From an uncultured Desulfovibrio sp. (GTDB lineage Bacteria > Desulfobacterota > Desulfovibrionia > Desulfovibrionales > Desulfovibrionaceae), in the NCBI RefSeq assembly GCF_944327235.1, contig NZ_CALVHE010000002.1, forward strand, positions 19,089-83,088: a stretch of 64,000 nt of DNA. The letters run 5' to 3'. The notes under the pieces are model-generated. The model worked only from the letters and a program-made list of their open reading frames with translations, had not been told where the DNA came from and did no database searches. The stretch's first letter is position 1, and each line of letters opens with the position of its first letter. A program made the position numbers and the translations under genes. Positions 3,860-57,748 of the stretch are shown here, piece after piece.

Positions 3860-3936
3860 CGTGGAACAGGTCTGTTGCGCATCCGCGGCGGAAGTCCGTA
3901 CTCTTCGGCTGTCGCGGCTCGCGGGGATCGCGGATA

Positions 3937-4078
3937 GAGCATTTTGCCTTTGAAAAAGGCAAAATGCGAGGCGGCGGCACAGCGCCGCCCGGCCCAAAGT
4001 GAGCGGAATGACCGCGTTTTTCCCGCGAAACGCCAGGTCGTATGTTTGGAACGCGAAGCGTTTCAACGGAAAATACTC
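3937..4078 (+). mobile_element. MITE-like repeat R1, copy A
   Basis: Starts GAGCATTTTGCCTTTGAAAAAGGCAAAA and ends GGAAAATACTC, forming an imperfect TIR. TA at the left flank (3935-3936) and GA at the right. Aligns along its full length with copies at 19672, 28183 and 53927(-). Confidence 0.75.
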
Positions 4079-4149
4079 GAGGGCTGTTTATATGAAATTT
4101 CAACTAATTCAGCAAAATAAGAAAGAATGGGCGGAACTAGCTCCGCGTG

Positions 4150-4216
4150 CCTTTGCGGGAAGCTTCGCATCTCTGACTCTTACACCAACAGGCCGTGAAT
4201 AGTGTTAACAGGCCCT
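4150..4216 (+). repeat. Repeat family R2, short right-end fragment (copy c1)
   Basis: 4186-4216 CCAACAGGCCGTGAATAGTGTTAACAGGCCCT matches the right ends of 23001-23124 and 45868-46157 (AAACAGGCAGCRAATAGTGTCAAYAGGCCCT). The upstream GACTCTT module is also shared. Confidence 0.45.
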
Positions 4217-4223
4217 AACAGAC

Positions 4224-4309: not shown

Positions 4310-5755
4310 TTATTCGCTGCTTTGGCTGCCGATCTTGGCGTTGATCTCCTGCAGCAGCTTCTGGGCCTGAGCATTGTCGGGCTCCATCTCCAGCGCCGTC
4401 CGTACCAGCGGCAGGGCGTGCATACTGTCGTTGACGGTAAAGAATACCTCAGCGATGTTGCAGGCGATGGTGGCCGACTTCTGCGGCAGATTGGGATTGA
4501 GGGCCATGGCCTTGAGCATGGACGCCCGGGCGGATTCGTAATCCTTGCCGTCGGCGTAGGCAAGGCCGAGGTTGTAGTGCAGGCCGTCGTTGTCGGGCAC
4601 CACCTTGAGCGCCTTCTTGTATTCTTCCGTGGCTTCCTGCCAGCGTCCCGTCCGGCGCAGGAGCATCCCCACGCGGTTGAAGACCACGAGGTCGTCCTTG
4701 CTCCAGTAGTCGCGCTTGGCTTCCAGACCACGCTGCAGGAAGCTGATGGCCATGTCGGGATCGACCTCGGAATAGGCGTCCGCCACACGGAAGGCCACGC
4801 CGCCCACATGTTCCATGGCTTCGCGGCTGGCCAGCTCGACGCTCTGATTGAACATCTTGCGGGCGTCCTCGCGCCGGTTGAGCTTGAGGTACAGTTCACC
4901 GATGGCCAGCTTGCGCTCCACATTGAGCGGGGAGAGCTGATCAAGCCGTTCAAGGTACTCAAGCTGCTTGAGCGGCTTCTTCATCTCTTCGTAGAGATCG
5001 GCCAGCTTGCGCAGCGGCTCAAGGTACATGTCGGCGCTGCGGCTGGCGTTCTCATACGCTTCACAGGCCTTTTCCCGCTGGCCCATGGAGCGGAACACGT
5101 CACCGATGATCAGCAGGACGGCGGCGGAATTGGCCTTGAGTTCCAGCGCCTGACGGCAGACCTGCAGGGCGCGCAGGTTCTCGCCCTGCGAATGCAGGGT
5201 CCTGGCCCATTCCAGCATACGGCTCATCTTGCCGTGCGGACGCACGGTGGCCGCCAGCCGTTCCAGCAGCTGATCCTGATTGTCGGGCTTGGCGAAGAAA
5301 GCGTCCGCTCCGGCTTCATGCAGGAGCACATAGCGTTGTTGTTCCGTTTCGGCGGCGATGAAAACGATGCGCACTTCGGGGAAACCGTTCTTGACAAGGC
5401 GCACCATATAACTGAGGTCGCGTCCCTTGAGGCTCTGTTCGATGAGCAGCAGGGGCGTCGCGTTTTCGGAGCAGACATTGCGCAGTATCCGCAGCAGCAT
5501 GTCGGCATCATGGGCGATGCTGATCTTGTCGGCCGGCAGCCCAAGATTCTCGTTCAGCACGTTCCGCAGCATATCCGTCAGCGCAACATCATCGGAAACG
5601 CAGATCAGATGGCCGCTATCCTTGAGGAATTCGCGGATGGCGTCTTCATACTGCTTGCTGTCCTGCGGCGCGGACTTTTCCTTGCTCATGCTCGCCTCGA
5701 CCTGCCGCATCGCCATGCGTTGCGCGAGGCCCGACGTCGCGTTGGAATTTGCCAT
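4310..5755 (-). CDS. Receiver-like domain protein with C-terminal TPR repeats
   Basis: The N-terminal region aligns by eye to a CheY-like receiver (ICVSDD ... LLLIEQSLKG ... FAKP). The C-terminal about 300 aa have repeated TPR-like A/L/Y/G patterns. Confidence 0.75.
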   Translation of the reverse strand: MANSNATSGLAQRMAMRQVEASMSKEKSAPQDSKQYEDAIREFLKDSGHLICVSDDVALTDMLRNVLNENLGLPADKISIAHDADMLLRILRNVCSENATPLLLIEQSLKGRDLSYMVRLVKNGFPEVRIVFIAAETEQQRYVLLHEAGADAFFAKPDNQDQLLERLAATVRPHGKMSRMLEWARTLHSQGENLRALQVCRQALELKANSAAVLLIIGDVFRSMGQREKACEAYENASRSADMYLEPLRKLADLYEEMKKPLKQLEYLERLDQLSPLNVERKLAIGELYLKLNRREDARKMFNQSVELASREAMEHVGGVAFRVADAYSEVDPDMAISFLQRGLEAKRDYWSKDDLVVFNRVGMLLRRTGRWQEATEEYKKALKVVPDNDGLHYNLGLAYADGKDYESARASMLKAMALNPNLPQKSATIACNIAEVFFTVNDSMHALPLVRTALEMEPDNAQAQKLLQEINAKIGSQSSE

Positions 5756-18265: not shown

Positions 18266-19387
18266 ATGGAAAATTTCGAGCAATTTCTGGCAAAATGGCC
18301 GCGCGAACGGCGCGCCCGCATCGCTGAAAGCGCCACGGAAGAGCAGGTGCTTGCCGCCCTGTGCAAGGATACCCTCCAGCCCGAGGACTTCCTCGTGCTG
18401 CTCTCACCGGCCGCCGCGCCGCATCTGGAAGATCTGGCCCAGCGCGCCCATGAGCTGACCCTGCGCTATTTCGGCCGGGCCGTGAACCTCTTCACGCCGC
18501 TGTACATCTCGGATGTCTGCACCAACCAGTGCCGCTACTGCGGTTTCAACGCCAAGAACACCCAGCCCCGGCGTCATCTGAACATGGACGAGATCGAAGC
18601 CGAGGCCCGCGTCATCGCGGATATGGGATTGCAGCACATCCTGCTGCTGACCGGCGACGCGCGCAAGCTGTCCTCCCCCGAGTACATTGCCGATGCCGCC
18701 CGCCGCATCAAGCCCATGTTCGCTTCCGTCGGGGTGGAAGTCTACTCCCTGACCGAGGACGAATACCGCCTGCTCATCGACGCCGGTGTGGACAGCATGA
18801 CCATGTTCCAGGAGACCTACAATCCTGAACTCTACGACTGGCTGCATCCGGCCGGGCCCAAGAAGGACTATTCCTTCCGGCTCAATGCGCCGGAACGGGC
18901 CGCCCGTGCGGGGATGCGTTCCCTTGGCGTGGGCGCGCTGCTCGGTCTGGACGAATTCATCCAGGACGCCTTCTGCACCGGGCTCCATGCCTGGTGGCTC
19001 ATGCGGCATTATCCGGGCGTGGACGTGGGCGTCTCCATCCCGCGCATCTGCTCGCATGAGGGGAGCTTCGACATCCCCCATGCCGTGGGCGACCGGCAGT
19101 TCGTGCAGTACATCACGGCCATGCGCTGCTTCCTGCCGCGCTCCGGCATCACCTGCTCCAGCCGGGAAAGCGCCTTCATGCGCGATCACCTCATCCCGCT
19201 GGGCGTGACCCGCGTTTCCGCGGGCGTGTCCACCGCCGTGGGCGGCCGGGCCACCGAGGCCGACAATTCCGGTCAGTTCGACATCACCGACCACCGCAGC
19301 GTGGAAGAGATGACCGCCGCACTGGCCGGCATCGGCTATCAGGCCGTCATCAAGGACTGGGAAGATCCCACCTCCACCCACGCCTGA
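18266..19387 (+). CDS. thiH: 2-iminoacetate synthase (tyrosine lyase), radical SAM
   Basis: CTNQCRYCGF radical-SAM cluster motif and ThiH-length protein directly after thiG. Confidence 0.88.
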   Translation: MENFEQFLAKWPRERRARIAESATEEQVLAALCKDTLQPEDFLVLLSPAAAPHLEDLAQRAHELTLRYFGRAVNLFTPLYISDVCTNQCRYCGFNAKNTQPRRHLNMDEIEAEARVIADMGLQHILLLTGDARKLSSPEYIADAARRIKPMFASVGVEVYSLTEDEYRLLIDAGVDSMTMFQETYNPELYDWLHPAGPKKDYSFRLNAPERAARAGMRSLGVGALLGLDEFIQDAFCTGLHAWWLMRHYPGVDVGVSIPRICSHEGSFDIPHAVGDRQFVQYITAMRCFLPRSGITCSSRESAFMRDHLIPLGVTRVSAGVSTAVGGRATEADNSGQFDITDHRSVEEMTAALAGIGYQAVIKDWEDPTSTHA

Positions 19388-19439: not shown

Positions 19440-19669
19440 CGCGGGGACCATTTTTTGTTTTTTGCGGGGGGAAGGAAGGGGGCTTTTTTGCAAAAAAGCC
19501 CCCTTCCTTCCCCCCGCGCCCCCCATCCATCCCGCAAAAAAATTTGCCGGGGAGGATGGCGGGGAAGCTTGCCCGCGCAGGTCGGTCCCTGCCTGATGGT
19601 CCCCCGGAAGCATGATGCGGAAAAAGCGGGATGGGGTATCCCACTCCGACGCTCTTCCTGGGCATTTTT
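19440..19669. repeat. Rearranged R2-type repeat (copy c5) made of inverted purine-rich modules
   Basis: Contains GGGGGGAAGGAAGGGGGC and GGGGAGGATGGCGGGG modules and their reverse complements. These are the same modules as in 45868-46157 and 56493-56743. It ends in a GACGCTCTTCCTGGGCATTTT module and directly abuts MITE copy B. Confidence 0.5.
19464..19517. repeat. Perfect 54-bp palindrome (27-bp arms, no spacer)
   Basis: GCGGGGGGAAGGAAGGGGGCTTTTTTG|CAAAAAAGCCCCCTTCCTTCCCCCCGC. I checked base by base that the right arm is the exact reverse complement of the left arm. Confidence 0.95.
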
Positions 19670-19671
19670 TA

Positions 19672-19816
19672 GAGCATGTTGCCTTTGAAAAAGGCAAAAC
19701 GCGAGACGGAGGCGCAGCGTAGCCCAGCCCATACCAAGCGGGAAAAACCACGTTTTTTCCGTGAAACGACAGTCCGTACGGTGTGGAACGTGAAGCGTTT
19801 CAAACTGAAAATGTTC
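19672..19816 (+). mobile_element. MITE-like repeat R1, copy B
   Basis: 145 bp flanked by TA on both sides (19670-19671 and 19817-18). The left end GAGCATGTTGCCTTTGAAA matches the reverse complement of the right end GAACATTTTCAGTTTGAAA at 14/19. Confidence 0.8.
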
Positions 19817-19980
19817 TATGATGCTGAGGGTATCGCTGGCTGGACGGCGGGAGGCGAAACGTGGAAACGGCCTTGAGCAAACAGTCCTTCCTTAAAAACT
19901 GTTTGAGTGACCAAACTATTTCTGGACAATGGGGGCGCAAAGGCGCACAGTAGGGCATCCATTTTTCGGGGAGGCATGTC

Positions 19981-23000: not shown

Positions 23001-23124
23001 TTGATGCAAATTTACAAATAATTTCGATAAATAAGGGGGGATAGTCCGCACGCGCGCCGCTTGCCTTCGCGGGCGGGGTCCCCTTTCCCTCCCAAACAGG
23101 CAGCGAATAGTGTCAACAGGCCCT
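23001..23124 (+). repeat. Repeat family R2, internally deleted copy (c2)
   Basis: AT-rich head TTGATGCAAATTTACAAATAATTTCGATAAATAA and tail CCCTTTCCCTCCCAAACAGGCAGCGAATAGTGTCAACAGGCCCT, both shared with 45868-46157. Confidence 0.6.
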
Positions 23125-23136
23125 GGCGGGATGTTT

Positions 23137-26803: not shown

Positions 26804-27976
26804 ATGAGCGCCGATACCCGTCTCTGGACCAAGGACTTTGTGGCGATCACCCTGGCCAATTTCTTCCTGATGATAAATTATTTCATGCTGATAGTGGTCA
26901 TGGCCGATTACGCCATGACCACGTTCGGCGCGGCCCCGGCACTGGCCGGCGCGGCCAGCGGCATGTTCATCGTGGGGGCGCTGGTGGCGCGCCTGTTCGC
27001 CGGGGCCTTCATGCAGACCTGGGGGCATCGGGCCATTGCGCTGGTGGGTATCGGCAGCGATCTCCTGTTCTCGGTGACGTATTTCGTGACCGGAGCGCTC
27101 CTGCCGCTGCTGGTCGTCCGCTTCCTGCACGGCTGTGCGTACGGCGCGGCGTCCACGGCGCTGGGGACCATCGTTTCCCGCATGGTGCCGGAAGCTCGGC
27201 GCGGCGAAGGGCTCGGCTACTACATGCTGAGCAATGCCCTTTCCGCGGCGGTAGGCCCGTTCATCGGCGTCTCCCTGCTGCGCAGCGGCTCCTTCGATCT
27301 GCATTTTTCGCTCTGCATCTTCTTCGCCTGCCTGAGCCTCGTCTCGGCCATGTGTTCCCGTTCCCTCTGGCAGGGCGGGCCAAGCCATGCCGGGGTCATC
27401 TTCATCCGTCCCTTGTGGCGCAATTTCCTGGAGCCCCGCGCCCTGCCCGTGAGCTGGCTGGCCTTCCTCATCTACGTGGCGTATTCCAGCATCCTGACCT
27501 TCCTCACCCCGTATGCCAAGGAGCTTTCCCTTGCCGCGACGGCCAGCGTTTTCTTCATCGTCTATTCGGCGGCCATGCTGGTGACGCGCCCCGTCGCGGG
27601 GAGGATCTTTGACCGGCACGGACCGGACCATGTCATGTATCCGGCCATAGTCGTGCTCGCCGTGGGCATCCTGCTGCTGGCCGGCTGCAACGGCAGTCTG
27701 CTCATGCTGCTTTCCGGGGCGTGCATCGGGGCGGGCATCGGCGTGCTGCAGTCCTGCGGCCTGACCATCGCCGTGCAGGCCTCTCCGGCCGAGCATGTGG
27801 GGCTGGCCAACTCCACATACTATATCTTCATGGACATCGCCGTGGGCTTCGGTCCGGCGGCGCTGGGCCTGCTCCAGCCGCTCACCGGCTACCGGGGCAT
27901 GTATGTGGGCATGGCCCTGCTCTGCGCCTTCTGCCTGCTGGTCTACGCCCGCATCCGGCCGCGCGCCGGACGCTGA
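26804..27976 (+). CDS. MFS transporter
   Basis: 390 aa with about 12 hydrophobic segments and a loop 2-3 like motif (GALVARLFAG region). Confidence 0.82.
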   Translation: MSADTRLWTKDFVAITLANFFLMINYFMLIVVMADYAMTTFGAAPALAGAASGMFIVGALVARLFAGAFMQTWGHRAIALVGIGSDLLFSVTYFVTGALLPLLVVRFLHGCAYGAASTALGTIVSRMVPEARRGEGLGYYMLSNALSAAVGPFIGVSLLRSGSFDLHFSLCIFFACLSLVSAMCSRSLWQGGPSHAGVIFIRPLWRNFLEPRALPVSWLAFLIYVAYSSILTFLTPYAKELSLAATASVFFIVYSAAMLVTRPVAGRIFDRHGPDHVMYPAIVVLAVGILLLAGCNGSLLMLLSGACIGAGIGVLQSCGLTIAVQASPAEHVGLANSTYYIFMDIAVGFGPAALGLLQPLTGYRGMYVGMALLCAFCLLVYARIRPRAGR

Positions 27977-28057: not shown

Positions 28058-28183
28058 ATGCTGGAGGAACTCATGGCTCACAAGAAGATCGAGCGCAAGA
28101 AAGAACTGGATCGCCGCCGTCATCGCCGCGCCCAGCGTCTCAAGCAGCGCGTGCGCGAAGCCAAGGCTGCCGCCAAGAATTAA
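28058..28183 (+). CDS. Candidate very basic small protein (36-41 aa)
   Basis: MLEELMAHKKIERKKELDRRRHRRAQRLKQRVREAKAAAKN. GGAGGA lies 7 nt before the second ATG (28073). Too short for the ORF track. Its TAA stop is formed with the first base of MITE copy C. Confidence 0.4.
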   Translation: MLEELMAHKKIERKKELDRRRHRRAQRLKQRVREAKAAAKN

Positions 28184-28327
28184 AGCGTTTTGCCTTTGAG
28201 AAAAGGCGGAACGCAAGGCGACGGCACAGCGCCGCCCGGCCAGGACCAAGCGGGAAAAAGGCGTTTTTCCCGCGGAACGACAGGCCGTATGGTTTGGAGC
28301 GCAAAGCGTTCCAAACTGAAAATGCTT
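28183..28327 (+). mobile_element. MITE-like repeat R1, copy C
   Basis: 145 bp flanked by TA on both sides (28181-82 and 28328-29). Colinear with copies A, B and D. Confidence 0.8.
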
Positions 28328-28592
28328 TAGAGCGGCCGCACTCGTGAAGCGTGGCCGCTCCGGCGGACGCGGGAGCGGACGCCCGCACCCGGGCAGGCGG
28401 AAAGCATGAGCATTTCCGCCGCGCGGGCAGCGCAGTCGTTGCAAAGGCCGCATGTCGAAGCGTTTTGGCGGGGGCTGCGGGCACGGCCCGGACCCTCGCG
28501 GGGCGCAGAGGCGGTCTGCCGCATCCCGGAGACAACTTTTTTCTACGGCCGACAGCCCTTGCGGGCTGTTCTGGCCGCTATTGGCGTCTGTT

Positions 28593-45867: not shown

Positions 45868-46157
45868 GTCAATACAAATTTTATAAATAATTTCAATAGA
45901 TAAAACTACAAGCTGTACACGCTCCGCTTGCCCTTGAGGCAGGGGAGCCTCGAGTCCCCGACTCTTCTCTCAGTAAAAGCGCGCTGGGGAAAGGATGGGG
46001 GGCTTGGGGGGAAGGGCACTCGCTCCCGCGCCGGCGGCGACCGAAAGGCGGCTGCGGACCGTGCTCGTTGGGCGACACGGAAGCCTCTCGAGCATCGAGG
46101 GCAGAGCGGGGGGCTCCCTTTCCTCCAAACAGGCAGCAAATAGTGTCAATAGGCCCT
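45868..46157 (+). repeat. Repeat family R2, longest copy (c3)
   Basis: AT-rich head CAATACAAATTTTATAAATAATTTCAATAGATAAAAC, a GC-rich purine/pyrimidine-tract body, and tail AAACAGGCAGCAAATAGTGTCAATAGGCCCT. CCCTAGGG is present just outside or overlapping both ends. Confidence 0.65.
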
Positions 46158-46175
46158 AGGGGCGGGAGAAAAGCC

Positions 46176-52017: not shown

Positions 52018-52032
52018 GGGGCTCTCCCACGC

Positions 52033-52827
52033 TCAGGGCAGCCAGCGCACGAGTCCCTTGGGGAAATCCGGGGGCAGCTCGTCCTCTTCGACTTTCTTGA
52101 TCTTGAAACGGACGCGTCCGCCGCTGTGGTCGGTATACTCAAGATAGCTATAGGTCTCTCCCAATCCCAGGAATGGTTCGTGGATCCCCTCCCTGAACTC
52201 AGGGTGCGGCTCCGCTGAGGATTCCCCGAGCAGGGGCCTGAGGTCACTGCCGTCTTTTTCCGTCATCAGGTATTCCCCATAAATGCGTCCATTACGCTCG
52301 CCATACACGGTAACAAGATAATAATTGCCGTACACGCGCCGCCACTGCAGCACATAGCGTCCCCCTTTCATATTTTGCCGGCCTGCGTAGTAGGTATCCG
52401 CGGGCGGGTCATCGGGAGCGTGGAGGGTCGTGCCGTCTTCAAAGCGGACCCAGTAGGGCGCAGCTTTCCCGTCCGCCTCCATGCCCGTGAAACTGCGTCG
52501 TTCCGGATTGTCGAGGTAGGAGATGTTTCTGACTGAGATCCCTTTCGGATCTGTGAGGGAGTAGATCGAGATGGTGGCGATCTTGAGTTTGTCCCCTTGC
52601 GGGACGCTCATGACGACATTCTCGTACTCGCCTCCTTTCAGCATGGGGTGGACGTAGGGAGCGGACGGGTCTGTGGAATGGATATACGGGATGAGCGCCT
52701 CGAGGGGCACCCAGGAGTCCCTGAAAAGATAATATTTGGCCTCCTGTGTGGGCTCTGCCGCGCAGGGGCTGGTCAGGAGCAGGATAAGCGGGAACGCCAG
52801 GCTCAGGCGTCGTCGGAAAGCGGACAT
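52033..52827 (-). CDS. Secreted hypothetical protein, tandem paralog 1
   Basis: Signal peptide MSAFRRRLSLAFPLILLLTSPCAAEP. Shares WRRVYGNYY, DLRPLLGESSAEPHP and the C-terminal LPPDFPKGLVRWLP with the neighbouring gene. Confidence 0.7.
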   Translation of the reverse strand: MSAFRRRLSLAFPLILLLTSPCAAEPTQEAKYYLFRDSWVPLEALIPYIHSTDPSAPYVHPMLKGGEYENVVMSVPQGDKLKIATISIYSLTDPKGISVRNISYLDNPERRSFTGMEADGKAAPYWVRFEDGTTLHAPDDPPADTYYAGRQNMKGGRYVLQWRRVYGNYYLVTVYGERNGRIYGEYLMTEKDGSDLRPLLGESSAEPHPEFREGIHEPFLGLGETYSYLEYTDHSGGRVRFKIKKVEEDELPPDFPKGLVRWLP

Positions 52828-52902
52828 GATGACCTCCTGTGGGGTGCTGCGTCAGGATGCGGCGGGAGCGCCCGCCGTCCGGGAAGGCGAGCGGGGCCGC
52901 GC

Positions 52903-53715
52903 TCAGGGCAGCCAGCGCACGAGTCCCTTGGGGAAATCCGGGGGCAGGTCCTTCTCCTGGACCACCTTGATCTTGTAGCGGATGCGCTTGCCGTCTTGAT
53001 CGGTAGCGTCGAAATAGGGGGCAAGGTCCGCATCGGATGCCACGGTCTTGCGGCAGGTCGTGAAGTCAGGATGCGGCTCCGCCGAGGATTCCCCAAGCAG
53101 GGGCCTGAGATCCTTGCCGTTTTCCTCTGTGATCAGGTATTCCGCAAGCACGAGTTCCCGGGCGTATTTGGTGACGAAATAATAATTTCCGTACACGCGC
53201 CGCCACCGCAGATAGAAACGCGCCTCGGGTATGACATTATTGCCGCGGGAATATTTGCCTACTTCGCCTGTGAAATAGGCGTCTGCCGGCGGGTCGCAGA
53301 AAACATGAAGGGCCGTGTCGCGATCAAAGGTGACGGCGAACGGGGACTGACTGTCAAGCGGCGTCGTTTGCGCCATGCCTGTAAAAATGCGCCGCTCCGG
53401 GTTCTCGAGGTACAGGATCTGCGAAACGAAAGGCCCTTCCTTGTCTGCAATGAATTCCGGCGGGAAGAGGGCGGCCTTGAGGATGTCCCCCTCCTGGACG
53501 GTCATGACGATGAACGAGTAGATGCCAGTGTTATGGATGCGGGGAGCGGACGGGTCGCTGGCACGCAGGTAGGACGCGAACTTTTCGAGGGAGATGCGGG
53601 AGTTCAGGTTGATGATGTTGTATTTTGGCCCCTGTGCGGGCTCTGCCGCGCAGGGGCTGGCCAGGAGCAGGATGAACGAGAACGCAAGGCTCAGGCGTCG
53701 CCGGAAAGCGGACAT
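52903..53715 (-). CDS. Secreted hypothetical protein, tandem paralog 2
   Basis: Signal peptide MSAFRRRLSLAFSFILLLASPCAAEP, with the same conserved blocks and identical last 14 aa as paralog 1. Confidence 0.7.
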   Translation of the reverse strand: MSAFRRRLSLAFSFILLLASPCAAEPAQGPKYNIINLNSRISLEKFASYLRASDPSAPRIHNTGIYSFIVMTVQEGDILKAALFPPEFIADKEGPFVSQILYLENPERRIFTGMAQTTPLDSQSPFAVTFDRDTALHVFCDPPADAYFTGEVGKYSRGNNVIPEARFYLRWRRVYGNYYFVTKYARELVLAEYLITEENGKDLRPLLGESSAEPHPDFTTCRKTVASDADLAPYFDATDQDGKRIRYKIKVVQEKDLPPDFPKGLVRWLP

Positions 53716-53766
53716 GATGACCTCCTTTGGTGGGGGGCATGGGATACGGGGGCCGTCCCGGTACCG

Positions 53767-53791: not shown

Positions 53792-53926
53792 CAGGCGTAC
53801 GTGAACGCCAGACTGAAGGTGGGCTGCCTTTTCTTGCGGCAATATGGAGCGTTTCGTCCGGCAGAGGGCGGTCTTTCTTGCCGCGGCAAAAAAAGAGCCC
53901 TCGCCATGATCCGCCTCCTGTCCCTT

Positions 53927-54069
53927 GAGCAATTTTAGTTTGAAACGCTGTGCGTTGCAAACCATACGGCCTGGCGTTTCGCGGAAAAACGCGGTGTTTC
54001 CGCTCACTTTTGGCCAAGCGGCGCTGTGCCGCCGCCTCGCGCTTTATCTTTTTCAACGATAAAACGCTC
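53927..54069 (-). mobile_element. MITE-like repeat R1, copy D (inverted orientation)
   Basis: The reverse complement aligns along its full length with copies A-C. TA at 54070-71. Its first base completes the TAG stop (54069-54071) of the methyltransferase gene. The left hairpin carries compensatory changes (TTTATC/GATAAA versus TTTGCC/GGCAAA). Confidence 0.78.
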
Positions 54070-54737
54070 TACCGGGAGGGATGCAGACGCTGTACGCGCG
54101 CCGGGGGCAGATTGATGAGGACGCGCCGCGTGCGGTCCGGCACGAAACCGGCCTGACTGAGCGGCGTCCGGCCCCAGAGGGCGTATGTGAACTGGACGAC
54201 GCAGCCTTCCGCATCCAGACATTGCCGCATGGCGGTCATGATGCCTGCCCGGCATTCCGGGGGCAGACTGAGCAGGGGCAGGGAAGAGACTATGGCCGCC
54301 ACGCGTCTGCCCTGCGGCAGATATTCGGGCAGGCGCATGGCGTCTCCCTGAACGACGGGCACATGCGGGAAGCGATCCTGCAACATACGGCAGAAGGTGG
54401 GCATCCGTTCGATGAGCAGCAGCCGCTGGGCCGGGATGCCCTTTTGCAGCAACGCCCGGGTGACCACTCCCGTGCCCGGCCCCAGTTCCACCACAAGGTC
54501 CTGTCCCTGGATGACGGACGGAGGCAGGAGGTTCGTCATGGTCTGGGCGAGGGCCGCGCTGCTGGGACAGACCGCTCCCACGCCGTGCGGCGCGCGGACC
54601 ATCTGCCGCCAGAAGGCCCCGAAGGAGGCCGCCATGCCAAGCACGCCCCCGTTACCGGCGTAACGGCCCCAGTCGGCGCGCAGATTGCGCCAGGTATTGC
54701 TCAGGCGTTGTTGCGTAAGATGTGCTAAACGGGTCAT
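54069..54737 (-). CDS. Class I SAM-dependent methyltransferase (phospholipid N-methyltransferase / rRNA adenine dimethylase-like fold)
   Basis: Start ATG 54737. VVELGPGTGVVT motif I, and LLLIE and VVQGDA blocks. Confidence 0.72.
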   Translation of the reverse strand: MTRLAHLTQQRLSNTWRNLRADWGRYAGNGGVLGMAASFGAFWRQMVRAPHGVGAVCPSSAALAQTMTNLLPPSVIQGQDLVVELGPGTGVVTRALLQKGIPAQRLLLIERMPTFCRMLQDRFPHVPVVQGDAMRLPEYLPQGRRVAAIVSSLPLLSLPPECRAGIMTAMRQCLDAEGCVVQFTYALWGRTPLSQAGFVPDRTRRVLINLPPARVQRLHPSR

Positions 54738-54905: not shown

Positions 54906-56210
54906 TCAGAAGGTATAGCCCACGGTGACGGAATAGATATTGGCCACAGTGTCCCGGCTGTTGCCGCCGCGGATGCCTGACACGCTGCTGCGGATGCCCC
55001 CGGCATCGGTAGTCCCGTAGTCCATGTCATATACCCAGAGATGGGCATACGCCAGATCGAGCGTCCAGTTCTCCCAGGTGAAGCCCGCTCCCAGACCCAC
55101 GCCGGTACGGCCATAGCTGGGGATCATGAAATCGGCGTGGGATTCATTGGTCACCGGCGTTTCATGCCAGACGCCCGCTCGCAGGGCGAGCCAGTCCAGC
55201 GGCTCATACTCCACGCTGGCATTGAAATTCCAGCCGTCGCGCCAGCCCTTTTGGTTGAGGGACTGGTAGTTGGAGTCAAAATAGATGTTCAGGGAGTCGT
55301 AGCTGGACCAGCGGGTGAATACCGTCCCCACCTCAAAGCTCAGATTGTCCAGCGGCTTGTAGGCCAGACCCACGGCAAAGGAGTCCGGCAGATGCACCGT
55401 GCTGTGGGCCCCGGTGTCCACGGTGTGGGGGACCTGCCCCATGTCCGCCAGCATATTGCTCTGATGGCGGGAATAGTCCACCTCGCCGTTGATGTTGAGC
55501 GTGACCGGACTTTTATAGGAAAAGCCCAGCGACAGCTCATCGGTCATGCGGAAGTGGGCTCCCAGATGCAGGCCGGCGCCCCAGCCGCTGCCGTTGAGGG
55601 TCAGCTTGCTGTCAGGGTCTTTCTGGGGGAAGAAACCCGCGAACTGCATGGTGGGGATCTGTTGCGACATGGCGAAATTGGCGTACATGACTTCCACGCC
55701 AGCGGACAGCGAGAGCACGTCGTTGACCTTCATGGCCACGGTGGGCACGAGGGAGAAGGTCTGGAAATTCACGCTGGTGAGATTGTAGCGTCCCACCCAG
55801 TTGTCCGAGAACTCATTGCCGAGACCGAAGCGGGAGAACATGCCCAGCCCCAGCCAGAAACGGTCATTGAGCTGATGGGTGATGTAGGCGTGAGGAGCGG
55901 GCCAGACATTGGGCTTGGTGGTCGTCGCCCTGCTGCTGCCGTCGAGCATCTCGGCGTCGATGGTGCCCATTGGCGCGATGACGGCAAAGCCGCCCATGAC
56001 CCGCGTGCCGGGCAACTGGGTGATGCCCGCGGCATTGTAGGCGAGAGCGGAAGGATCATCGGCGCGACCGACCATGCCTCCGGCCAGCGACAGCCCGCGC
56101 GAACTCCATTCCGTAAGACTAAACCCCTCGGCCCGGGCAACGCTGACCTGACAGGCCCAGATGAGACAGCACAACAGCAACAGATACCGTTTTTTCACCA
56201 CACCCTCCAC
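54906..56210 (-). CDS. FadL/OmpP1/TodX-family outer-membrane hydrophobic-compound channel
   Basis: Signal peptide, an N-terminal hatch-like GF.L.E.S.RGL..A.AG.V.RADD..A...NAAG, alternating beta-strand pattern and terminal ...VGYTF. Confidence 0.82.
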   Translation of the reverse strand: MEGVVKKRYLLLLCCLIWACQVSVARAEGFSLTEWSSRGLSLAGGMVGRADDPSALAYNAAGITQLPGTRVMGGFAVIAPMGTIDAEMLDGSSRATTTKPNVWPAPHAYITHQLNDRFWLGLGMFSRFGLGNEFSDNWVGRYNLTSVNFQTFSLVPTVAMKVNDVLSLSAGVEVMYANFAMSQQIPTMQFAGFFPQKDPDSKLTLNGSGWGAGLHLGAHFRMTDELSLGFSYKSPVTLNINGEVDYSRHQSNMLADMGQVPHTVDTGAHSTVHLPDSFAVGLAYKPLDNLSFEVGTVFTRWSSYDSLNIYFDSNYQSLNQKGWRDGWNFNASVEYEPLDWLALRAGVWHETPVTNESHADFMIPSYGRTGVGLGAGFTWENWTLDLAYAHLWVYDMDYGTTDAGGIRSSVSGIRGGNSRDTVANIYSVTVGYTF

Positions 56211-56302
56211 AACTTTTCCGTCAGAGGCCCGTCCGTCGCAGCGGTCAAGCCTTCCTGAAAAATAAAATTTTGTAAAAATATTCTTGTATTGCGTTATAAG
56301 TC

Positions 56303-56484
56303 AAGTGTTTTGCCGTCGGAAGGGGGCTGTGTAAGGGGAGTGGACGGCAGGCCGCAGCAGGACCGTAGCGGCCGTCGGGAAGCGCTGCGCTGCCCGGCCG
56401 AAACCAAGCGGAACGACCGCGTTTTTTCCGCGAAACGCCAGATGCCTGATTGGGAACACGAAGCGTTTCAAACGGAAAATGCTC
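56303..56484 (+). mobile_element. MITE-like repeat R1, copy E (degenerate left end, expanded GC-rich middle)
   Basis: The right 100 bp align well with other copies (…GACCGCGTTTTTTCCGCGAAACGCCAG…GAAGCGTTTCAAACGGAAAATGCTC). The left end AAGTGTTTTGCCGTCGGAAGG is diverged. No TA flanks. Confidence 0.6.
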
Positions 56485-56492
56485 CAGGGGTT

Positions 56493-56743
56493 GGTAATGC
56501 AAATTTTACAATAATTTCAAAAGATAAGATGGGTAAGCCGTTCGTGCCATCCGTCTTTGGGGAGGGGGCAAGTCGCGTCCCTGACGCTTCTCTCGGTAAA
56601 AGCGCGTTGGGGAAGGGATGGGGGCTTGGGGGGAAGGGAGCGACCGAAAGGCGGCCCGCAGAGCCGTGCCTGTTAGGCGACAAAGGAGCCTTACGGGCAT
56701 CGACAGCAGAGCAAAGGGGGGTCTTCCCCCTCAAAAAAAAGCG
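56493..56743 (+). repeat. Repeat family R2, copy c4 (tail truncated or diverged)
   Basis: The head GGTAATGCAAATTTTACAATAATTTCAAAAGATAAGATG and body modules (GACGCTTCTCTCGGTAAAAGCGCG, GGGGAAGGGATGGGGGCTTGGGGGGAAGGG, CGACCGAAAGGCGGC) are colinear with 45868-46157. Confidence 0.6.
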
Positions 56744-56761
56744 TAATGAGTCCTGAACCTA

Positions 56762-56909
56762 GAGCGGATTCGCATTGAAATCGTGTCCAATTTCCATGCT
56801 GACGCTGCCCTCACACTACGGAAAAAGCGTGGTTTTTCCGTGTGTTCGGTTGCGGGTAGTCGCTCTCGCGACTACCAGAGCAATCCACATTTTCAATGTG
56901 GAATTGCTC
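56762..56909 (+). mobile_element. MITE-like repeat, divergent R1 subfamily (copy F)
   Basis: 148 bp flanked by TA on both sides (56760-61 and 56910-11). The left end GAGCGGATTCGCATTGAAA matches the reverse complement of the right end GAGCAATTCCACATTGAAA. It has the internal CGGAAAAAGCGTGGTTTTTCCG palindrome, as in R1. Its last base completes the TAG stop of the larE-like gene. Confidence 0.65.
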
Positions 56910-57748
56910 TAATCGAAAAAGCCGCTGATGCGTTCCGTCCGCCGGAGAGCGCAGGGCCAGAAACCCGCTGCCTCCAGGATGTGGCGAAGTCGCTCCAGAG
57001 AGGGAGGGGCCGGTCGTTCATGCTGCAGGACCGGTCCAGGACACAGGCGCAGGCGAAAGTCCCCCAGAGCCGGACGCCCGTCAACATCCGTCAGGGCCGC
57101 GAGGGCGGCCTCGGCCTGAGCCAGACGGCGCAACGTCTTTTCATCCGGGCGGCAGCCATAGGCCAGACGGGTCAGCAGGCAGGGGCGGGCCGTCTGTTCG
57201 GGGTCCTCAAGCCCCCAGATCGCGCCCAGCCTGCGCAGGTCCGCCTTGCGGATGCCGGCCTCGGCCAGTGGCGAGGCCACCCCCGCTTCCCGCAAGGCCC
57301 GCAGACCGGGACGATGGGCCCGCAGGTCGTCGGCATTGCTGCCGTCGCAGAGCAGGGCGTCCGGCAGGCCGCGCGAGGCAAGGCGTTCCCGCAGGGCCGC
57401 CAGCAGGGCTTTCTTGCAGGCATAGCAGCGCTCCCGGCTGCCATCGCTCACTTCCGGCAGGCCAAGGGGGGAAAAGGGGACCATCTCCAGCGCGAGGCCT
57501 CGCGCTTCCGCCCAGCTGCGGGCGGCCCGGCTCTCCTCGTCGGGCACATGAGGCCCGTGCGCGTGCAGGGCCGTGAAAGGCAGCCCGGCACGCTGCAGGG
57601 CCAGACAGAGGAAACGACTGTCCACGCCGCCGGAAAGCGCCACGGCCAGCGCCGGAGCCCGCCCCGCGCACGCCGTCAGGCGTTCCCGCAGACGCTGTGC
57701 CGCGTCGGCCAGATCGGCGGGCAGCGCCGACCGGTCTTCGGCTACCAT
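56909..57748 (-). CDS. PP-loop ATP pyrophosphatase family protein (LarE-like / TIGR00268-type)
   Basis: Start ATG 57748. [13 protein letters not shown]-loop motif. Overlaps the hisF stop by 7 nt. Confidence 0.72.

Follow-up and report, generated by a model that had tools for sequence, protein, structure and literature searches.

Among the described systems closest to the repeat analysed here are RUP, a non-autonomous DNA transposon (MITE) of about 107 bp in Streptococcus pneumoniae that is attributed to the insertion sequence (IS) IS630-Spn1, and the Correia elements (NEMIS) of Neisseria, for which we know of no cognate transposase. The termini of RUP, Correia, ERIC, Nezha and REP/BIME differ from those of our element, and these families are set apart from it by their descriptions. 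In the IS630/Tc1/mariner family, insertion is confined to TA, which is duplicated in the process, and the transposase binds the inverted repeats via N-terminal helix-turn-helix (HTH) motifs (PMC2170065); the biochemical model of the IS630 family is ISY100 (PMC2170065). The repeat analysed here lies in a 64-kb stretch of Desulfovibrio DNA (hereafter, the window), and we regard it with high confidence as a MITE of an IS630-family IS living in the Desulfovibrio piger clade. A full-text literature search found no description of the family or of its IS in D. piger or its relatives, and the 148-bp family seems to be both undescribed and very abundant.

Copies in the window were located with an nhmmer model built from the four colinear copies A to D. 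The coordinates below include the terminal TA.

3935–4080, plus strand: MITE copy A, main 148-bp family (nhmmer E = 2e-46, full model)
19670–19818, plus strand: MITE copy B, the feature under study (nhmmer E = 1e-45)
28181–28329, plus strand: MITE copy C (nhmmer E = 8e-46), TA on both sides
53925–54071, minus strand: MITE copy D (nhmmer E = 2.5e-46)
56301–56486, plus strand: MITE copy E, degenerate (nhmmer E = 4e-23)
56760–56911, minus strand: copy F, sister subfamily (marginal nhmmer match, E = 0.007), TA on both sides

These six places had been reported in a sequence-only reading of the same DNA, and nhmmer and alignment returned the same coordinates for all of them, the strand of copy F being the one exception. 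Four copies had been called colinear over their whole length, which alignment and nhmmer (E of about 1e-46) bear out: A to D are colinear, E is partial and F aligns poorly. Copy F had been described as a divergent subfamily on the plus strand. It is a real element of a separate sister subfamily, with the TAGAGC...TTGAAA termini and the central A5/T5 hairpin of the main family, but the orientation was wrong, the strand colinear with the main family being the minus strand. The match between its terminal inverted repeats (TIRs) is TAGAGCAATTCCACATTGAAA, and relatives at 90–100% identity occur in four sampled loci (L034, L021, L073 and L042). Copy E had been read correctly as degenerate: only 56359–56486 aligns to the model, over positions 40–147 (the right two thirds), and the left end is decayed, with about 40 extra bases. 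A core pattern of 21–22 nt matches the window in exactly five places, copies A to E, and in none of 100 shuffles. All window copies are intergenic by crude gene calling, in a window of 65% G+C. An AT-rich block, GCAAATTTACAAATAATTTCGATAAATAAG, occurs at 4092–4126, 23006–23040 and 56499–56533, in two cases immediately right of a MITE (copies A and E) and in the other with no MITE.

The left TIR of copy B spans 19670–19690 and the right TIR 19798–19818, and the 14 of 19 matching positions given earlier for its ends are correct by direct reading. It lies 283 bp downstream of thiH (18266–19387), beyond that gene's own terminator-like hairpin. TA had been noted on both sides of copies B, C and F and on one side of A and D, and we found the same: A has TA on the left and GA on the right, and D has TA at the left (model) end only. 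The genes around copy A converge on it, with a small ORF and YceG upstream of that on one side and a minus-strand TPR protein on the other, and the same site is occupied in two same-species contigs (L121 and L122). Copy C has an MFS transporter gene (26804–27976) on one side and a Zn-ribbon/adenylosuccinate lyase operon on the other; six same-species contigs share it, and L117 lacks it. Copy D has the same orientation as the two minus-strand genes that flank it. Adjoining it are tandem paralogous minus-strand genes (52033–52827 and 52903–53715, within segments 52027–52842 and 52897–53730) that are approximately 80–90% identical over several blocks, and the gene between copies D and E (54906–56210) encodes a protein whose exact sequence is absent from the records. 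Given the same-species presence of copies A and C and a mutual identity of 68–85%, the window copies appear mostly fixed and old.

Outside the window, a core-pattern scan of species-representative genomes provided a sample of at least 108 stretches totalling 694 kb from at least 12 assemblies. The search for further copies in relatives that had been proposed yielded many: in these 694 kb, which represent at least 12 species-level genomes, the profile has at least 253 matches, and 138 of these are full length. Hosts among the matches listed are D. piger ET209, Ca. D. intestinigallinarum, Ca. D. gallistercoris and several uncultured Desulfovibrio, together with one Desulfovibrionaceae bin and one Mailhella bin, and the densest stretch among them holds up to 8 copies in 6.8 kb. 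From the 5–6 copies in the 64-kb window and approximately one non-seed copy per 5 kb of loci, we estimate several hundred copies per genome. A 30-nt pattern was found in 57 gut-metagenome contigs, and 35 of 55 metagenome matches (64%) lie within 150 bp of a contig end, where 9% would be expected. The element breaks assemblies.

The edges of conservation are abrupt, running from T1 A2 to T147 A148 in 123 full copies, and the flanks of these copies are random except for a purine bias just to the right of the element. The 148-nt consensus is TAGAGCGTTTCACCTTTGAAAAAGGTGAAACGCGAGGCGGCGGCACAGCGCCGCCCGGCCCAAAGTGAGCGGAAAAACCGCGTTTTTTCCGCGAAACGACAGGCCGTATGGTTTGAAACGCAAAGCGTTTCAAACTGAAAATGCTCTA; the full copies used measure 141–155 bp, with a median pairwise identity of 82% (range 49–99%). 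The left end of the consensus, TAGAGCGTTTCACCTTTGAAA, and the reverse complement of its right end, TAGAGCATTTTCAGTTTGAAA, are identical at 17 of 21 positions. At 148 bp the element has no coding capacity and is too short for a transposase. There are also derivatives of the main family of about 90 bp (L002:53–143, L023:42–131, L047:1832–1921 and L079:3009–3100), which retain both terminal hairpins (model positions 3–48 and 99–147) and lack the two central ones. In two other copies (L027:2575–2723 and L053:259–401), the central quasi-palindromic segment (model positions of approximately 69–106) runs in the opposite orientation to the remainder of the element.

To tabulate flanks, we used 152 distinct full copies, of which 72 form the best-conserved class. 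In that class TA is found on the left in 62, on the right in 59 and on both sides in 52 (72%), against a background of 2.0% of dinucleotides in the same sequences. In the most diverged class, TA is retained at approximately 50% per end, and the losses are mostly transitions to CA or TG. The enrichment of TA flanks suspected from the window is strong in the larger sample and fades with copy age. A pyrimidine precedes the left TA in 74% of copies and a purine follows the right TA in 86%, which gives a target of Y-TA-R. Tandem copies share one TA: adjoining copies overlap by exactly 2 nt in L090, L024, L036 and L030, and in L142 three pattern matches follow one another at a spacing of 146 bp (148 minus 2).

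Flank-to-flank comparison of the window, the sampled loci and the contigs provided pairs of filled and empty sites, including one at the site of copy C in a sister strain; empty TA sites at orthologous loci had been named earlier as something to look for. The filled site of copy C reads GCCAAGAAT-TA-(element)-TA-GAGCGGCC, the empty site in L117 reads GCCAGGAAC-TA-GAGCGGTCC, both right flanks begin GAGCGG, and an identical MFS protein adjoins. In a second pair, L077 is filled (GTTGCT-TA-(element)-TA-AAGAC) and L109 is empty (GTTGCC-TA-AAGGC). L109 holds a segment of about 110 bp twice (3930–4040 and 4335–4446), and the relative of this segment in L077 carries the MITE insertion; because of this duplication, the pair may be paralogous and not orthologous. 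Two other pairs, L044/L072 and L013/L048, have 2 nt and 3 nt remaining at the site, respectively. Clean filled/empty pairs number only two, with three or four more blurred by divergence. L056/L081, L035/L040, L043/L100 and L048/L162 were rejected as evidence of duplication, as their junctions are too diverged. The TA is the target-site duplication made on insertion.

Occupancy of orthologous loci also differs between species and strains, which speaks to the earlier concern that positional conservation in all relatives would indicate a cis-regulatory RNA. For example, within one 4-kb stretch D. piger ET209 and Ca. D. intestinigallinarum share two copies and differ in one (L013/L048). In the thi operon, the D. 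piger copy between thiS and thiG has no equivalent in the window, and D. piger in turn lacks a counterpart of copy B within 390 bp after thiH; with such different insertion places, positions are not conserved across species. Same-species contigs at copy B break approximately 100–130 bp after thiH, inside another repeat. L109 was considered as an empty site for copy B and rejected, since it continues past thiH but the downstream sequence differs.

The partner of the element came to light in a six-frame scan of the window, the loci and the contigs for the IS630/Tc1 signature Y-S-P-x-L-N-P-I-E. There was one match, on a 3.1-kb human-gut contig that starts inside a MITE (L174), and with it a full-length IS630-family IS bearing the same termini, such as had been recommended for search.

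L174, 940–1934: partner IS, 995 bp, 43% G+C, with ends TA-GAGCAATTCAACTTTGAAATG ... CATTTCAAAGTTGAAACGCTC-TA

Read inwards, the right end of the IS, TAGAGCGTTTCAACTTTGAAATG, and the left end of the commonest MITE variant, TAGAGCGTTTCAACTTTGAAA, coincide base for base over 21 nt. The IS has two overlapping ORFs of 135 and 208 aa, which join into a protein of 311 aa after removal of one base of a T5A8 run. The joined transposase scores 187.9 bits against the NCBIfam model NF033545 "IS630 family transposase" (cut-off 100), covering model positions 2–298 of 299, and matches DDE_3 (1.4e-33), HTH_23 and HTH_29 in Pfam; its signatures include DNLSSHKS and YSPDLNPIEKMW. A protein search returned ORF B clusters at 86–99% identity, two of which hold 82 and 311 members, mostly from contigs of about 1 kb, as well as full-length homologues of 312 aa at 55–58% identity. 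Six further contigs carry the IS at 86–99.5% identity and with the same ends. TA flanks the IS on every contig showing both ends, usually preceded by C and followed by G or A. Among the at least 108 first loci, there was no inverted pair of MITE-type ends 0.8–3 kb apart, and split partial profile matches were rejected as IS ends because none formed a properly spaced inverted pair.

The IS and the MITE occur together on one contig, L174, which itself carries MITE fragments, and in one MAG, that of Ca. D. intestinigallinarum. There, the last 130 bp of the IS (100% identity) open a MITE-bearing contig (L082) and are followed by TA, so the IS lives in MITE-bearing genomes. On L185 the IS abuts a MITE end, and one TA is common to both. 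An A8 run splits the transposase frame in five of the seven IS contigs (L174, at 1308–1320, L185, L182, L183 and L184), which come from several samples, within a run of T(3-5)A8; with A7 in its place, the frame of the most divergent IS (L180/L181) is uninterrupted. The conserved split at A8 looks like programmed slippage; a defect would be the alternative.

Three non-autonomous families have the termini of the IS: the main 148-bp family, the F type and a 139-bp element (L098 and L126). The last consists of approximately the first 117 nt and the last 26 nt of the IS and is, on its sequence, a direct internal-deletion derivative of it. The main family has only the termini of about 21 bp in common with the IS and no internal sequence. 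In the 64-kb window, tblastn with the partner transposase found nothing significant, in agreement with the earlier statement that no transposase-like ORF is present there.

The most likely mover of the element is the small IS630-family IS present in the same gut Desulfovibrio genomes. Its transposase, predicted at about 311 aa with N-terminal HTH domains and a DDE_3 catalytic domain, would recognise terminal inverted repeats of approximately 21–23 bp with the pattern TAGAGC-N-TT-N4-TTTGAAA. Because the 148-bp element has the same repeats at both ends, the transposase could cut and paste it as well, excising it and inserting it at TA, preferably at Y-TA-R, with duplication of the TA. Repeated rounds would have spread it to the several hundred intergenic sites estimated per genome. 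Action of the partner transposase in trans is what the matching termini suggest, and cut-and-paste transposition is presumed by analogy with the rest of the family. The element has sharp ends, duplicates TA, is polymorphic between filled and empty sites and shares its termini with the IS. The proposal that it is a MITE moved by an IS630/Tc1-mariner transposase, made from the window alone, is supported by copy number, TA duplication, empty sites and the partner IS. Against present-day mobility in the window genome, its copies are old and mostly fixed, and the window lacks a transposase.

Some features of the element go beyond what transposition needs. The fold of the consensus has four hairpins, with the two ends also paired, and an energy of -75 kcal/mol, where shuffles give -39 ± 4; over 111 copies, pairing is kept in 92% of pair cells. 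Double-change cells number 112 against 44 ± 5.5 in column shuffles, with none of 500 shuffles reaching 112, and slid controls yield about a third of the covariation score. Almost all double changes fall in the two terminal hairpins, each of which is made of the inner half of the terminal repeat and an inverted copy of that half, and doubled transposase sites or a small number of master lineages may be their source. In 96 of 123 copies the plus sense has the slightly stronger fold, and G-U exceeds C-A by approximately 2:1 in a tally of 20 predicted pairs. By a crude GC3-based gene caller, the element in co-directional intergenic regions is co-oriented with the genes 41:17 (p = 0.002), and the same crude caller places 20 copies in convergent regions and 9 in divergent ones, where the background counts are 44 and 54. 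The idea that the element carries a promoter or a terminator was dropped, since scans in and around copies B and C found no sigma-70-like promoter and no consistent terminator, only a single weak minus-strand match in B. The hairpins, covariation and orientation bias are superfluous to the transposon model and leave room for a secondary host use.

How much weight should these features carry? One reading accepts the element as a MITE by origin and holds that host selection now keeps it as a strand-specific structural module; it adds to the transposon origin and does not replace it. When co-transcribed, it might stabilise mRNA 3' ends or be a site of their processing; the other candidate role is as a platform for a DNA-binding protein. 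The four well-paired hairpins with their excess of double changes, the low folding energy, the steadier plus sense with its surplus of G-U over C-A, the co-orientation with genes and the leaning toward convergent regions all speak for it. However, covariation in a repeat family partly mirrors few master lineages, and kinship alone can beat shuffles. The terminal hairpins consist of the transposase-binding repeat with an inverted copy of it and might instead have a function in transposition, the orientation counts rest on the crude caller, no sigma-70-like promoter or consistent terminator accompanies the element, and selection against promoter disruption alone explains a preference for the 3' ends of genes. 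On balance we consider this reading unlikely, and the narrower version, in which the host has co-opted the 148-bp family as an RNA/DNA structural module at gene 3' ends and specific to one strand, a shade more doubtful still. If it were true, hundreds of copies would shape transcript ends or transcript stability in a major sulfate reducer of the human gut.

The same structure could be taken to mean that the copies belong to a conserved, non-mobile family of cis-regulatory or small RNA genes fixed at orthologous loci, the more so as some changes are compensatory and copies A and C are fixed in most same-species contigs. This is highly improbable. Rfam, which had been suggested as a query, gave no match in the whole window at gathering scores and none near copy B even at E ≤ 1; positions vary between related species and even within the species of the window; tandem arrays, truncated copies and internal-deletion copies exist; and copies lie in all orientations beside unrelated genes. 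Empty sites contradict it, and the TA duplication and the termini shared with the IS point to mobility. If the element is mobile, another mover might be considered, either a REP-associated tyrosine transposase of the REP/BIME type, which the palindromic units and the high-copy intergenic spread recall, or a TNA-duplicating transposase of the IS5/PIF-Harbinger type, since some IS5-group ends have GAG termini like those found here. We give this equally little credence: empty sites and the tandem period give a duplication of 2 bp and not of 0 or 3 bp, a 148-bp unit with 21-bp terminal inverted repeats is unlike a REP palindrome of 20–40 bp, and an IS630-family IS with matching termini is present in the same genomes. 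The preferred reading is still that of a MITE served by this IS630-family IS.

Sulfate reduction in the human and animal gut is mainly the work of D. piger and its relatives. The density of the repeat, seen in the 64% of metagenome matches near contig ends, would account for the fragmentation of their short-read assemblies and MAGs, and since insertion sites vary between strains and species, they could provide ready strain-typing markers. The 995-bp IS and its MITEs are a compact matched pair for the study of trans-mobilisation, and the orientation bias and conserved hairpins raise possible effects on the expression of neighbouring genes. Other repeats share these genomes. A second dispersed family lies in the window at 45900–46115 and 56495–56740, with a reverse-complement piece at 19500–19540. 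It consists of G-rich blocks (GGGGAAGGGATGGGGGCTTGGGGGGAAGGG) followed by CGACCGAAAGGCGGC...GTTAGGCGACA..GGAGCCTTACGGGCATCGACAGCAGAG..AAGGGGGG, and its window segments give 45 and 74 BLAST matches outside the window. The same-species contigs break in the 19500–19540 piece, and the family also follows the IS in L174. A conserved motif of approximately 30–50 bp, CAAACAGGCAGCGAATAGTGTCAACAGGCCCT, is found in the window at 4183–4221, 23095–23129 and 46128–46162, as well as in L092, L102, L103 and L104.

By analogy, the element is of an ordinary kind and would follow the same logic as RUP, the cyanobacterial IS630 MITEs, Correia and Stowaway, with another sequence and another host. Like RUP, it is short and non-coding, has TIRs matching an IS630-family IS of its host, duplicates TA and occurs in many intergenic copies. 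The host phylum is another, and no sequence similarity is apparent when the two are compared by description; the Desulfovibrio element is also longer (148 bp) and, by estimate, denser (approximately one per 5–13 kb), and shares only its termini with the IS. With Correia it has in common a size in the range of about 100–155 bp, TIRs, TA duplication and high copy number, along with internal-deletion variants and a strong fold when transcribed. However, the Desulfovibrio element has a partner IS, and whereas the ends of Correia form promoters and hold a site for IHF, it has no promoter-like site in the scan of copies B and C. Nezha and other IS630-derived MITEs of cyanobacteria share with it the IS630/Tc1-mariner type of transposase, insertion at TA only and TIR binding by an N-terminal HTH, but sequences and host are unrelated, and compared with Nezha and ISY100 the Desulfovibrio IS is very small (995 bp) and has its frame split by A8 in most copies. 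The plant element Stowaway, which depends on Tc1/mariner transposases, is likewise related to its autonomous element by the TIRs only, with unrelated internal sequence, and shows TA duplication and a preference for genic neighbourhoods; it is eukaryotic and unrelated in sequence. REP/BIME and ERIC of enterobacteria are, like our element, intergenic, palindromic, present in high copy number and often co-transcribed at gene 3' ends. REP sequences, however, are palindromes of 20–40 bp that are moved by RAYT tyrosine transposases without target duplication, and the ends, duplication and partner IS of the Desulfovibrio element do not fit that type.
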